Below, piece by piece: positions 57,547-61,519 of a stretch of 64,000 nt of DNA; the first letter of the stretch is position 1; each line of letters opens with the position of its first letter. The position numbers were made by a program, and so were the translations under genes. The notes under the pieces are model-generated. The model saw only the letters and a program-made list of their open reading frames with translations, was not told where the DNA came from and did no database searches. The stretch is taken from contig OY969811.1 in NCBI GenBank assembly GCA_963703315.1, forward strand, positions 288,001 to 352,000. Direction: 5' to 3'. Source of the DNA: an uncultured cyanobacterium. Lineage in GTDB: Bacteria > Cyanobacteriota > Cyanobacteriia > Pseudanabaenales > Pseudanabaenaceae.

Positions 57547-59250
57547 CCCACATTCCGCTCGTAATGGAAGGAAAAAAACAATTACGAAACAGGAGCAGGG
57601 AGCAAATAGTAGCGTTGGCAGGAGGGAGAAAAGAAATTCAAAATGTGAAGGCGAAGCGGAGACAAATTTGCAACTTGAGTCAGGTTCTGAAAAGAAACTA
57701 AATGAACCGCCATAAAACATTGAAAAATCCAACGCAAAGTTGGCGAATTAGTGGGTTTACCCAATTGATTAGGAATAGTATCTTGAGCGATGGCTAAGGC
57801 AAGTCTGAGTTGACGTTGGGCTAAATTATAAACGAGCAAGCACAGTGCCATAATCATGCCCAAAGCCTCAATGCGTTTAGCAGACTTGAGAAAAACACTC
57901 GAAGTAAAAAACAAAGGATCTTTGAGGAAACGAAAACCACGCTCAGTGCTCTGCTGAGCCTTGTATTCCCGTAAAGCATCATCAGCCGTGAATTGTAAGG
58001 AATCAAGAATATTCGTGGCTAAAATAAACCTGCCACAACGCTGTTGCTGAGCCAAGATTTCTGAGTCTATAGGAATCACCGTTGCAGTAATCCGATAACT
58101 AATGCTGGTGGGTATAGCATCAGGTTGTGGCTTACCCCGTTTCGCATAATGTGGTTTTTCTACTGCCTGAATATGGTCGAGTTGATGCCATTTCATCTTG
58201 GTTGATAATTTTTCAGCAGCAGCGATCGCGTCAGCAGCACAGGCAAAATCTTGTCCCGCCAAAGTGTGTAAATCTTGATGACATTTTTGCTGGACTTGCT
58301 CAAGCTTTTTGTCTAACTTTTTGATGTCTGATTTACGTCTTGCTTGGCTATCAACTAAAATCCATCTCTGTCTTACACCACCATACTCACTCACAGTTTC
58401 GGCTGTCCTGTATCCCTTAAATTTACTTTCTTGTAGGTCAGTTGTGCTTGACACTAAGTCACTTGCAGTTTTGATGCTTAATGGCACTCGGGTTAGCCAT
58501 TTTAGTCCTGTCATTGCTACCAGATTTTCTTCACTGTATAGCGCTGCATCGCCTACGCATATTCCCTCAAATGTCCACTGGGTTTTGAATTCTTGTAATA
58601 GTCCTGCAAATCTTGCTTTGTCGGCTTGATTTCCACTTACCACTTCCATCATTACGGGAATGTCTCCATCTCCTACACAGATCAGGTTCATCATAAATTG
58701 CTTCAGGTCGGGGCGATGGTCGCGTGAATATCCGTGTGTGATTTCGATACTCCCTTCTTCCTCTCTGCCATATTCCCCATCTACGTGAAATGAGGTTGAG
58801 TCTATATGTCCTGTTTCTACCTTGACATCGTATTTCGCTACTGCTTTCAGGCTGATTCCTAAAAATGTCTCACTCAGTCCTGCTTCATGTAAGTCATCCA
58901 GTACTTTACCGATGCGGTCATCATTGATTTGTTCGGCTGTTATCCCTTCCCCCAATAAGTGCTCGGTTGCTTTTCCTTCAAAGAATTTACCAAACATATA
59001 CAGGGGCGCTGATACAAATCCTAATCCATTCAGGAGCATTGCTTTGACGATTACCCCTGCGCTTACTTTTTCTCTTGAGCTTCTCCCGATTATCGTGTTT
59101 ATTTCTTCCACGATTCCCATCTCGTCGATGATTCCTGCCACGATCCCTAGATGGTCTAGGTTCGTTACTTTCATCTCTGTATTAATATCTGCCTCCTCTT
59201 TTTGCCTTTTCTCTAATTATTTTACCCTTCCATTACGAGCGGAATGTGGG
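57547..59250 (-). mobile_element. IS1634-family insertion sequence, complete (1704 bp)
   Basis: Perfect 25-bp TIRs (57547-57571 / 59226-59250) and 5-bp TSD TTCAT (57542-57546 / 59251-59255). Confidence 0.92.
57582..59174 (-). CDS. IS1634-family DDE transposase
   Basis: LDHLGIVAG, HIDSTSF, GYSRDHRPDLKQ, DAALY, ERGFRFLKDP. Confidence 0.92.
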   Translation of the reverse strand: MKVTNLDHLGIVAGIIDEMGIVEEINTIIGRSSREKVSAGVIVKAMLLNGLGFVSAPLYMFGKFFEGKATEHLLGEGITAEQINDDRIGKVLDDLHEAGLSETFLGISLKAVAKYDVKVETGHIDSTSFHVDGEYGREEEGSIEITHGYSRDHRPDLKQFMMNLICVGDGDIPVMMEVVSGNQADKARFAGLLQEFKTQWTFEGICVGDAALYSEENLVAMTGLKWLTRVPLSIKTASDLVSSTTDLQESKFKGYRTAETVSEYGGVRQRWILVDSQARRKSDIKKLDKKLEQVQQKCHQDLHTLAGQDFACAADAIAAAEKLSTKMKWHQLDHIQAVEKPHYAKRGKPQPDAIPTSISYRITATVIPIDSEILAQQQRCGRFILATNILDSLQFTADDALREYKAQQSTERGFRFLKDPLFFTSSVFLKSAKRIEALGMIMALCLLVYNLAQRQLRLALAIAQDTIPNQLGKPTNSPTLRWIFQCFMAVHLVSFQNLTQVANLSPLRLHILNFFSPSCQRYYLLPAPVS

Positions 59251-59338
59251 TTCATTGTCACCACCGTCATTTTCCGACAATTTCTGGCAAAACATTATTC
59301 CCATAATTCTCGTAGATACTGTCTTGAGTACCAAAAAG

Positions 59339-60325
59339 TCAAGAGGGAATTTGAACAAAATTTGGGTCGAAAGAACGCTGAGACTTGAGAACGCCAAAGA
59401 CCTGTCGTAACAGCTTGTGCATGACAGCCCCAATGACAGACATTTTGGACTTACCCTTAGCCGTAAGGCGAGCGCAGAAAGCAGCAATCGGCAAATTATA
59501 ACGACGGGCAACAATCGCAGGCATAAACAAAGCTTTACGCAAACGCGAATTACCAATTTTAGATAAACGTGGCTTACCATGAATCGAAGAACCAGATGAG
59601 AACTCACGGGGAGTTAAACCCGCAAAAGCTGCCAGTTGATCAGCAGTATCAAAGGCAGAAATATCCCGAATTTCCGCCAGTAATATAGTTGCGGTCAGTT
59701 CAGCAATACCAGGAATAGAAGTCAACAAATCCCGTTGAGATTTCAAATGAGGGTGTTGATCAAAGTGCTGACGGATCAATTTTTTGGTCATCTCAATTTG
59801 CTCTTTGAGAAAATCAATGTGAGCATTAATTGCCTCAACCAAAATTGGATCAGCCGTAGCAAGACGATTCTGCTCTTGCTGCTGCATAGCAGTTAAGCTA
59901 TCTAAACGATGCACCAATGCTTGTAGTTGCTCAATTTCTAATGCTGGTGGTGTCCAAAGAGCAGGTTTTAAGGCTGCACAAAATCTAGCAATGACTTTAG
60001 CATCAGCACGGTCAGTCTTTGTACGACTTAACTCACTCTTGCCAAAGGCTTTGGGACGGGATGGATTAACAATACTTACTTTGTATCCTGCCTCTACTAA
60101 GAATCTAGCTAACCCATTGCCGTAAGTGCTGGTAGCTTCCATACAACTATGCAAGTTTGTCACATTTTGAAGGTTTAGCCATTCTTGTAATTCAGCAAAT
60201 CCTTCAGGATTGTTGGCAAATACTTTGCTCTTGATTTTGGCGTTGCCTTGGATTAGAGCAACATCAAATTTGGCTTTGCTGATATCTATTCCTAAAACAT
60301 CATATACTTCATTGTTATTGTTCAT
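59339..60325 (-). CDS. IS110 recombinase (DEDD RuvC + Tnp domain)
   Basis: GIDISK, MEAT, KTDRADA, SIPGI, FSSGSS catalytic Ser, GNSRLR. Confidence 0.95.
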   Translation of the reverse strand: MNNNNEVYDVLGIDISKAKFDVALIQGNAKIKSKVFANNPEGFAELQEWLNLQNVTNLHSCMEATSTYGNGLARFLVEAGYKVSIVNPSRPKAFGKSELSRTKTDRADAKVIARFCAALKPALWTPPALEIEQLQALVHRLDSLTAMQQQEQNRLATADPILVEAINAHIDFLKEQIEMTKKLIRQHFDQHPHLKSQRDLLTSIPGIAELTATILLAEIRDISAFDTADQLAAFAGLTPREFSSGSSIHGKPRLSKIGNSRLRKALFMPAIVARRYNLPIAAFCARLTAKGKSKMSVIGAVMHKLLRQVFGVLKSQRSFDPNFVQIPS

Positions 60326-60364
60326 TGGGGGCAGTCCTCTTGCTAGATTTGTCCATCAAGCAAT

Positions 60365-60562
60365 CAGTGGTATTGAACTATCCTTGTGAATGCAGGTTTA
60401 CCCGTTGGGCGACCTCTGATACTGTCCAGTCTTTACTTGTTTCCACTGTTTAAGCAGAGACGACTCTATCTACAAAACGGGCTTGGTGTCCCTAGGGGCA
60501 GATCGAGTTTATCTCTGCTTTTGCTTTTTCGGATTGTAGTAAAGATTTTATCCTTTACTTTT
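60365..60562 (-). ncRNA. Predicted bridge RNA (5' hairpin, target-binding loop, donor-binding loop); ends approximate
   Basis: Guides UCUGCCCCU (60494-60502), GUAG (60470-60473), ACAGUAUC (60418-60425) and ACAAG (60383-60387) match the reconstructed target and donor; closing stems visible. Confidence 0.85.
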
Positions 60563-60575
60563 CCTCCTAGATACA

Positions 60576-60776
60576 AGGGGCAGAGCATTCCCGCAGAAAT
60601 TTATGATTTTTCAGATCCTCTCAAATCGGGAATGCTCTGCCCTAAACCTCACACATTTACCGACAATCCCCAAACCGCAGAGATAAATTATTCGTTACAG
60701 CAAAGAGGGTAGAGCATTTGCCGATAGAGATTTCGGTGATAATTTACAAATATTGGCGCAAATGCTCTACCCCTAC
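60576..60776. repeat. REP cassette 1 (two hairpins), upstream of RAYT; 5' GTAG split by IS110
   Basis: gggcagagcattcccg/cgggaatgctctgccc and gggtagagcatttgc/gcaaatgctctacccctac. Confidence 0.85.
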
Positions 60777-60803
60777 ATTTGCCACATCTGCCATATTTAT
60801 TTT

Positions 60804-61283
60804 ATGTCTTACAATCCTGAAATTCATTATCGACGTTCTATCCGTTTGCAAGGATATGACTATACAAGCGCAGGAATCTATTTTGTAACCATCTGTTGCC
60901 ATCAAAGACAGCATTTGTTTGGAGAAATAGAAAATGGAGAGATGAAAATAAATGCGATCGGTCAAATTGTCTCTAACCTATGGCAAAAGATTCCTCAGCA
61001 TTTTCCGAATGTAGAGCTTGATGCATTTATTCTGATGCCCGATCACCTACATGGAATCATCGTAATTTCAGAATCAAAGGGAAAATCCTCCTTAGCCAAT
61101 ATTATCCAAAATTTTAAATCTATTTCCTCTCGCAAAATCAATCGTATTAACAAAAACTACGGCGTATCGATTTGGCAACGCAATTATTACGAAAAGATTA
61201 TCAGATCTGAACAGGAATTAAAAAATCTGCGTGAATACATTAAAAATAATCCAGCTAATTGGACAGATTGCAATACCGAATAA
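60804..61283 (+). CDS. REP-associated tyrosine transposase (RAYT, Y1 HUH)
   Basis: RRSIRLQGYDY...YFVTIC, MPDHLHGI, WQRNYYE.IIR, YI.NNP; ATG 60804 preferred because the upstream in-frame ATG lies in the REP. Confidence 0.9.
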   Translation: MSYNPEIHYRRSIRLQGYDYTSAGIYFVTICCHQRQHLFGEIENGEMKINAIGQIVSNLWQKIPQHFPNVELDAFILMPDHLHGIIVISESKGKSSLANIIQNFKSISSRKINRINKNYGVSIWQRNYYEKIIRSEQELKNLREYIKNNPANWTDCNTE

Positions 61284-61316: not shown

Positions 61317-61519
61317 TAGGGGCAGAGCATTCCCGCAGAAATTTATGATTTTTCAGATCCTCTCAAATCGGGAATGCTCTGCCCTAAACCTCCCACATTC
61401 ATCGACAATCCCCAAACCGCAGGGATAAATTATGGATAAAAGCCAAGAGGGTAGAGCATTTGCGGATATAGATAGTAGTAGCAATTTGAAAGATAGTGAC
61501 GCAAATGCTCTACCCCTAC
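61317..61519. repeat. REP cassette 2, direct repeat of cassette 1
   Basis: 61318-61392 is identical to 60576-60650; same second hairpin arms. Confidence 0.88.

Follow-up and report, generated by a model that had tools for sequence, protein, structure and literature searches.

An IS621-like IS110-group insertion sequence in a cyanobacterium with a predicted bridge RNA matching its own donor and its REP-type insertion sites

The system against which we compare the element reported here is IS621 from Escherichia coli, which combines a bridge recombinase with a 177-nt bridge RNA (PMC11208160, PMC11208158). The wild-type IS621 bridge RNA has a donor specificity of ACAGTATCTTGTAT and a target-loop specificity of ATCGGGCCTAC (Supplementary Table 2, PMC11208160). 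Durrant et al. reported thousands of predicted orthologues in which the second (donor) loop varies far less than the first, and a Cyanobacteria-labelled cluster representative in their tree table is tagged IS621;ISCro4 (PMC11208160). The IS1111 group (seekRNA) shares the protein family and the RNA-guided logic, while its guide RNA lies at the other end of the element and its terminal repeats are longer (Extended Data Fig. 10, PMC11208160). ISPpu9 and ISPpu10 from Pseudomonas putida (PMC12288879, bioRxiv 10.64898/2026.03.19.712850) are IS110-family elements present in several copies; ISPpu9 targets repetitive extragenic palindromic (REP) sequences and ISPpu10 targets multiple identical copies of a conserved intergenic sequence. 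These two differ from the present element in host phylum and resemble it by description only. Our analysis concerns a 64,000-nucleotide stretch of DNA from an uncultured cyanobacterium of the Pseudanabaenaceae (contig OY969811.1, positions 288,001 to 352,000; hereafter the window) and, within it, an IS110-group element that carries a recombinase gene and a predicted bridge RNA.

The element occupies 59314-60577 on the minus strand and measures 1264 bp including the core dinucleotide CT at both ends. Very probably it is an intact, multi-copy IS110-group insertion sequence that is IS621-like in its working. Read on the minus strand, the left junction is ...AATGCTCTGCCC-CT-TGTATCTAGG... (60584-60571) and the right junction is ...AAGACAGTAT-CT-ACGAG... 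(59322-59309), with the left copy of the core at 60576-60577 and the right copy at 59314-59315. The last bases of the right end, ACAGTAT (59316-59322), form the left donor half and are identical to the left donor guide described below; the first bases of the left end, TGTAT (60571-60575), form the right donor half and are complementary to the right donor guide. The resulting donor 14-mer, ACAGTAT-CT-TGTAT, is identical to that of IS621. An earlier reading of the window, made from its letters without database searches (hereafter the sequence-only reading), had stated this identity, and Supplementary Table 2 of PMC11208160 bears it out; a donor oligonucleotide in PMC13396178 contains the same IS621 14-mer. 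The element also shares with IS621 a CT core, a long left end and a short right end, here 252 nt and 25 nt of non-coding sequence. Since the RNA lies in the 252-nt left end and the right end is 25 nt long, the element is placed in the IS110 group and not in IS1111.

A search of 59314-60577 against its own 4.57-Mb genome (G000) returned seven full-length copies, at 100% identity as printed. All seven start with CTTGTATC, finish with ACAGTATCT and carry CT at both ends. Because seven genomic copies have exactly these ends, the limits 59314-60577, as the sequence-only reading had drawn them, are independently confirmed. Four of the seven copies are identical, one has a G to A change at element position 74, and two have one additional C in the C run directly before the ATG (a 1265-bp version). 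Each copy therefore has at most one difference, and the 328-aa open frame is kept in all of them. Contigs from three public DNA runs agree with these limits, starting at 59312 and stopping or changing at 60573-60581, as assemblies do where a repeat begins or ends. One DNA contig contains the left flank and core followed by other sequence; it yields no inference because the same 75-nt hairpin is present twice in the genome. Contigs of one RNA library span 60274-60581, and such contig coverage is no sign of transcription.

The recombinase open reading frame (ORF; 59339-60325, minus strand, 328 aa) has the two-domain organization of IS621. Its N-terminal RuvC-like DEDD domain matches Pfam DEDD_Tnp_IS110 (PF01548, E 8.5e-27), and its C-terminal domain, which contains the catalytic serine, matches Transposase_20 (PF02371, E 1.4e-26). 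Among solved structures only the ISCro4 transposase (structure 9t56, E 3.5e-76) and the IS621 transposase (phmmer E 7e-73) were matched, both over residues 9-321; ISCro4 is thus the best-scoring solved relative, a likeness on protein alone. A hand count of the printed alignment gave 136 identical residues out of 312 aligned to the IS621 protein (about 44%). Hiraizumi et al. reported that D11, E60, D102, D105 and S241-G242 of IS621 are essential (PMC11208158). All four acidic residues are kept, with D14, E63, D105 and D108 standing opposite their IS621 counterparts, and S244-G245 stands opposite S241-G242. A two-residue numbering offset of the deposited IS621 chain was inferred from its length (328 aa as compared to 326). 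The 90%-identity cluster of the recombinase has 149 members; among the 15 members listed, an organism is named in three, all of them Pseudanabaena, and one is an IS110 family transposase.

The left end, read on the minus strand, contains the segments of a bridge RNA in the order described for IS621. Minimum-energy and centroid folds give a 5' stem-loop of 7 bp with an 8-nt loop at 60538-60559, followed by a target-binding module at 60452-60520, whose arm duplex energy was reached by 0 of 500 shuffles. This module is closed by an outer stem, AAGCAGAGA (60512-60520) with TCTCTGCTT (60452-60460), and an inner 3-bp stem, CUC (60505-60507) with GAG (60464-60466). Within these stems lie the left target guide UCUGCCCCU (60494-60502), which matches the left flank plus core, one linker base, a GGG...CCC stem-loop (60479-60492) seen in folds and backed by compensatory pairs, GU, and the segment UUU-GUAG-AU (60468-60476). 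In the latter, the right target guide GUAG (60470-60473) is followed by a handshake AU (60468-60469), complementary to donor positions 6-7 (AT). The donor-binding module (60365-60448) was recognized by folding and by compensatory changes in its inner stem. Its outer 6-bp stem pairs CAGTGG (60443-60448) with CCACTG (60365-60370) and leads through an asymmetric internal loop to an inner stem, GACU (60428-60431) with AGUU (60376-60379). There follow GG, the left donor guide ACAGUAUC (60418-60425), identical to the last seven bases of the element plus the core C, then AG, a 22-nt stem-loop seen in folds (60394-60415), GC, and the right donor guide AU-UC-ACAAG-GA (60381-60391). In this guide AU (60390-60391) is complementary to donor positions 13-14, ACAAG (60383-60387) is complementary to CT+TGT, and GA (60381-60382) is placed as the handshake by the IS621 template. 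The 5' hairpin, the target loop with UCUGCCCCU and GUAG, and the donor loop with ACAGUAUC had all been proposed beforehand and were recovered in the folds or the sequence. The proposed right donor guide needed a correction: ACAAG is present as claimed, and it occurs twice in the donor module, where the copy at the IS621 position is the 3' one (60383-60387) and not the one at 60436-60440.

To compare this RNA with that of IS621, the wild-type sequence and design template (PMC11208160) and the published nucleotide ranges (PMC11208158) were aligned with it by eye. The IS621 target loop consists of a stem, a 3-nt linker, the left target guide (50-58), U59, a stem-loop (60-71), G72-U73 and the right target guide (74-82) including the handshake A and U at 81-82; its donor loop consists of a stem, G121-G122, the left donor guide (123-130), A131-U132, a stem-loop (133-154), G155-U156 and the right donor guide (157-167) including the handshake at 166-167 (PMC11208158). 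The two RNAs correspond segment by segment in order, guide lengths (9, 9, 8 and 11 nt) and spacing, which upholds the claim of an IS621 layout. The linkers are the same, the last IS621 guide being NN-UU-7 nt; the distance from the left donor guide to AU is 26 nt in both; and the 22-nt donor stem-loop has the length of IS621 nucleotides 133-154. A right target half AC read by GUAG and a target-loop handshake AU are likewise common to the two systems. They differ in that 17 nt separate the target guides here as compared to 15 nt in IS621, the target-loop stem-loop being 2 nt longer, and in that the present donor module has an additional asymmetric internal loop (11 nt vs 5 nt) between its outer and inner stems. 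The right donor guide is ACAAG here (a full match) and GCAAG in IS621, while the left target half is TCTGCCC here and ATCAGGC or ATCGGGC in IS621. In the stretch from the donor module to the ATG (60326-60364, minus strand), an additional 8-bp hairpin, UUGCUUGAU...AUCUAGCAA, stands just before a GAGGA ribosome-binding site with no T run after it; this hairpin might be where the RNA ends at its 3' side, or it might gate translation.

The insertion sites of the seven copies were then compared with the guides. In six copies the element immediately follows the 3' arm of a REP-like hairpin, ...AATGCTCT(G/A)CCC; in the window this hairpin occupies 60578-60642 (minus strand), and its 3' arm ends in TCTGCCC (60578-60584), the left target half. 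Five copies have TCTGCCC as their left target half, one has TCTACCC, and the seventh, which has no hairpin, has TATTCCC. The left target guide accordingly matches the left flank plus core at 9/9 positions in five copies, 8/9 in one and 7/9 in one. The two bases after the element, which form the right target half (59312-59313 in the window), are AC in 7/7 copies, so that GUAG is complementary to CT+AC in every case. It had been predicted that other genomic copies would sit at the same site, and six of seven do, exactly or with a G.T wobble, with all seven sharing the same ends. In TCTACCC an A replaces G at target position 4, so the guide G would face a bottom-strand T. IS621 tolerates a mismatch at this same position, its natural site being ATCAGGCCTAC while the loop encodes ATCGGGCCTAC (PMC11208160); insertion into REP-type repeats and tolerance of a G.T wobble at target position 4 are features that the two elements share. 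The copy at this variant site (G000:C1:2716312-2717575) is also the one with the G to A change at position 74, a linker base two positions before the left target guide that is invariant in 14/14 of the left ends compared below. The only copy outside a REP arm (G000:C1:3868924-3870187, guide match 7/9) has the left flank ...GCGATCGCAGTATTCCC, which includes the left-donor-like CAGTAT four bases from the core; this may be chance.

The genome offers many more such sites than are occupied. The hairpin arm motif occurs 52 times on both strands and is followed by the element in six instances. Thirteen of the 52 are followed by CTAC and represent empty candidate sites, and the remainder are followed by other bases and are also empty. 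The exact sequence TCTGCCCCTAC is found unoccupied at five places in the genome, and TCTACCCCTAC occurs nine times. The six occupied arms all have CT at the junction, and arms followed by TAAAC, AAAAC and similar sequences are empty. In a genome of the same genus (G308), a protein search revealed no copy of the element. The exact arm motif was absent from the loci fetched from that genome; alignment revealed a diverged, related hairpin family in which two of three aligned copies end in ...TGCCC-CT-AC, the third being unaligned at that end. Since the G308 hairpins end in this way, the site belongs to the repeat and the element is the newcomer. The flanks of two copies fall on different G308 contigs, hence an empty site could not be reconstructed from them.

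Relatives of the element provided a comparison of guides with flanks beyond this genome. Of 401 genomes of the phylum, G000 among them, 16 gave a match in a protein search at E up to 1e-40, and a tblastn search of plasmids gave 1222 records, none of which reached 60% identity. The comparison covered 14 left ends, namely that of the present element, eight found by searching the genomes and six located on plasmids of Enterobacter, Escherichia, Pantoea, Deinococcus, Leptolyngbya and Kovacikia. The 9-mer was read in a register chosen by eye, as the nine bases ending in CU before the inner stem-loop. These 14 left ends hold 12 distinct left target guides, which match their own flank plus core at 9/9 positions in nine elements, 8/9 in three, 7/9 in one (Deinococcus) and 3/9 in one (locus L009); two of the three 8/9 guides have G.T or U.G wobbles at the deviating position. 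The right target guide fits in all 11 elements for which a right end was found, including the variants GAAG with CT-TC (Leptolyngbya, seven bases in a row) and GGAG with CT-CC (Deinococcus, six in a row). Thus the target guides change together with the flanks across relatives. The donor guides vary likewise, the left donor guide ACAGCAUC matching a right end ACAGCAT-CT and ACGGAAUC matching ACGGAAT-CT; the right ends of single-copy relatives are not independent here because they were located by donor-guide search. At the handshake positions, AGAU is invariant in 14/14 relatives, and the A after GUAG faces donor T7 in all 14, a column that gives no information because it does not vary. Pairing with flank position 7 is seen for the base after (A/G)CAAG in 11 of 13 elements, L012 being left out for its degenerate right donor guide; three elements have G at target position 7, and in two of them the base after the right donor guide has changed to C.

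Several of the relatives have features of their own. The elements from the Enterobacter, Escherichia and Pantoea plasmids (L151-L153) have clear bridge RNAs with left target guides that match their left flanks at 9/9 positions, and these elements may be longer than the usual size. Three relatives of one genus, g3 (L011, L012 and L014), have left ends of 391-526 nt, in which the extra length consists of tandem repeats rich in GCGATCG-like units located between the end and the bridge RNA.

The predicted structure was also examined across the relatives. RNAalifold on MAFFT alignments recovered the two inner stem-loops and the inner donor stem, and 8 of 12 pairs in one alignment and 12 of 16 in the other were kept with both sides changed. 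In the target-loop stem-loop, each of the four predicted pairs is kept in doubly changed form by between one and five of the 14 relatives. The arms of the outer stems were tested for each sequence separately because the outer stems are out of register in the alignments. By this test only 0-19 of 500 shuffles equalled the target-module arms in 13 of the 14 sequences, with Deinococcus the remaining one (76/500).

Joining the two ends of the element in silico generated a promoter-like site, TTGACT-18-TATCTT, with 9/12 matches, that passes the rules of the promoter scan. The -35-like hexamer TTGACT lies in the right end and overlaps the stop codon (59337-59342, minus strand), 18 nt from TATCTT after circularisation; TATCTT straddles the junction, where the right end contributes its last three donor bases, the core supplies CT and the left end adds its first base. 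The promoter scan found no such site on the element's strand in the integrated copy. A circle-only promoter is the published normal state of the family (PMC11208160), and among the 11 relatives with both ends known a junction site is present in ten and a site in the integrated state in one. The -10 hexamer spans the core in the present element, L009 and L016 (TATCTT, donor positions 5-10), in seven other relatives it begins further in, at donor positions 12-14 (four bases into the left end), and in IS621 it lies just inside the left end. One tentative explanation, which we regard as somewhat doubtful, is that the donor 14-mer has been held constant from Enterobacterales to cyanobacteria, at about 44% protein identity, by a dual job, being read by the donor loop and supplying part of the -10 hexamer of the circle-only promoter. 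If true, this double role would account for the much stronger conservation of the donor loop than of the target loop, and reprogramming the donor would silence the native promoter.

By homology to the described systems, the DEDD/serine recombinase would excise the element as a circle, and the joined right and left ends would form a sigma-70-type promoter from which a bridge RNA of about 200 nt would be transcribed from the left end. The first internal loop of this RNA is predicted to pair with the target TCTGCCC-CT-AC, a site made up of the REP-like hairpin's 3' end and two more bases, and the second loop with the circle junction ACAGTAT-CT-TGTAT. The recombinase would then exchange strands at the CT core.

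A number of results weigh against this interpretation. In the minimum-energy fold, five of the nine left-target-guide bases (UCUGC) pair with GUAGA, and all six bases of GUAGAU are paired; the mean unpaired probabilities in the single-sequence fold are 0.45 for the left and 0.04 for the right target guide. As the target guides are mutually paired in the fold, the guide loop is not predicted to be fully open. The sequence-only reading had placed the guides in internal loops and had named paired guides as evidence against itself; its layout stands as in IS621, and the partial pairing, an energy prediction for a single sequence, bears on the point that it had named. This pairing is absent in the fold of the 92%-identical L009, which has another guide, and is conserved in no relative; such self-pairing is a possible brake on activity. 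The donor-module arms of the present copy are weak and no better than chance (97 of 500 shuffles reach their energy), as they also are in L009 (121/500) and Deinococcus (145/500). A scan of 58900-61000 found no Rfam 15 bridge-RNA family at E up to 10 and gave only weak microRNA-like and sRNA-like matches, on the REP hairpins, so no curated model backs the bridge-RNA assignment. The contigs of four public runs contain no joints, neither the circle junction nor the empty site, although contigs drop rare forms. Three enterobacterial plasmid relatives have no right end within the 600 bp fetched after the gene. Finally, the closest relative, L009 (locus G089:C20), is a single copy whose left target guide matches its own flank at 3/9 positions, and the site that its guide specifies is not enriched in its genome (4 matches vs 24 for a reversed control). 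The L009 guide is GAAACCCCU and its left flank is ...GGCGGTTGAAACCGCGA, a small hairpin in which the first six loop-side bases match the guide and are followed by four extra bases.

These results bear on other explanations of the locus. The matches between the loops and the element's ends could be coincidental, with the left end being merely the 5' untranslated leader of the recombinase gene. The short guides GUAG and ACAAG alone are indeed expected by chance, and ACAAG occurs five times in the element. However, when the left end was shuffled 200,000 times by mononucleotides, the 9-mer was present in 35 shuffles, the 8-mer in 978 and the two together in none, and this is joined by the change of guides with flanks across the 14 relatives and by a segment spacing equal to that of IS621; coincidence is thus hardly credible. 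A more substantial alternative accepts a true IS110 element and proposes that its site is chosen mainly through the DNA structure of the REP hairpin, by protein or host factors, with the RNA match being secondary. The position of six of seven copies at a hairpin foot would fit such a choice, as would the sole copy of L009, which also stands at the foot of a small hairpin despite its mismatched left target guide, and a sequence-plus-structure logic of target choice has been described for ISPpu10 (2026 preprint, bioRxiv 10.64898/2026.03.19.712850). Hairpin structure does not account for the seventh copy, which lies outside any REP arm motif with a 7/9 guide match, nor for the restriction of the six occupied arms, out of 52, to those with CT while arms of the TAAAC/AAAAC type are empty. 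It is also difficult to reconcile with twelve distinct guides that track twelve flanks in the relatives, many of which are not hairpins, and we consider it quite improbable.

The alternative with the largest share of our remaining doubt, although still an unlikely one, is that the copies are the trace of a past burst and that the element is now silent or disabled, through the self-pairing of its guides or through a promoterless integrated state. The predicted mutual pairing of the target guides, the integrated copy without a promoter-like site on its own strand, the lack of circle or empty-site joints in contigs of the four public runs and the change in one copy at G74, invariant in 14/14 relatives, would all be in keeping with silence. 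Against this, four of seven copies are identical, the 328-aa frame is open in all seven and the catalytic residues are in place. There are still 13 unoccupied REP ends with CTAC, so neither decay nor saturation is visible. The silence of the contigs means little where rare forms are dropped, and a circle-only promoter is, as described above, the family's published normal state. The protein, the layout, the donor and the self-consistent copies support the interpretation of the element as an IS621-type programmable recombinase, as the sequence-only reading had concluded.

That reading had also suggested that the ortholog and its target were new, which is overstated: a tagged cyanobacterial representative and a conserved donor loop are already in PMC11208160. 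Because the target loop varies much more than the donor loop, a donor kept in common alongside a different target is what one would expect. The mechanism was published in 2024; the element is a new instance of it, no new mechanism, and leaves the published one unchanged. A full-text literature search found no paper on a cyanobacterial element of this kind, and the genus name and one accession gave no match in the searched portions of the PMC11208160 supplementary files. The element had no DNA match in complete E. coli genomes (blastn, distant setting), and a search for the 14-base IS621 pattern in genome contigs gave chance matches only, with an IS110 homologue at 0 of 80 fetched loci (tblastn). 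What the locus adds is a natural IS621 orthologue, present in seven copies, whose donor is identical and whose REP-type target is clear; it offers an example of natural retargeting with the donor held fixed and might be used as a compact RNA-guided recombinase of cyanobacterial origin. It also places an IS110 element on a REP-hairpin family around a Y1 (RAYT-like) transposase gene outside the proteobacteria.

The latter gene lies beside the element in the window. An ORF at 60753-61283 (plus strand) matches Pfam Y1_Tnp (IS200-like, E 2.7e-11) and is located between two identical 75-nt stretches holding REP-like hairpins (60578-60642 and 61318-61392), with hairpins of a second subtype (GGGTAGAGCATTTGC...) beside the 75-nt stretches. 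This arrangement looks like a RAYT gene with REPIN repeats. After the hairpin copy at 61318 the sequence reads CT-AA instead of CT-AC, and this copy is empty. On the other side, 63 bp from the IS110 element, a second and unrelated insertion sequence occupies 57547-59250. Its 530-aa ORF (57582-59174, minus strand) contains DUF4277 and DDE_Tnp_1, its 31-nt terminal inverted repeats are 94% complementary, and it is flanked by an apparent 5-bp duplication, TTCAT. Public-run contigs break at 59250-59254.

Elsewhere in the genome, two pairs of the IS110 copies face each other left end to left end (G000:C1:2714875-2717575 and 3075044-3077747). Gaps of 172 bp and 175 bp, containing two hairpins in opposite orientation, separate the members of these pairs, and each pair consists of one 1264-bp and one 1265-bp version. 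Inverted pairs of this kind could allow RNA-guided inversion of the DNA between or around them.

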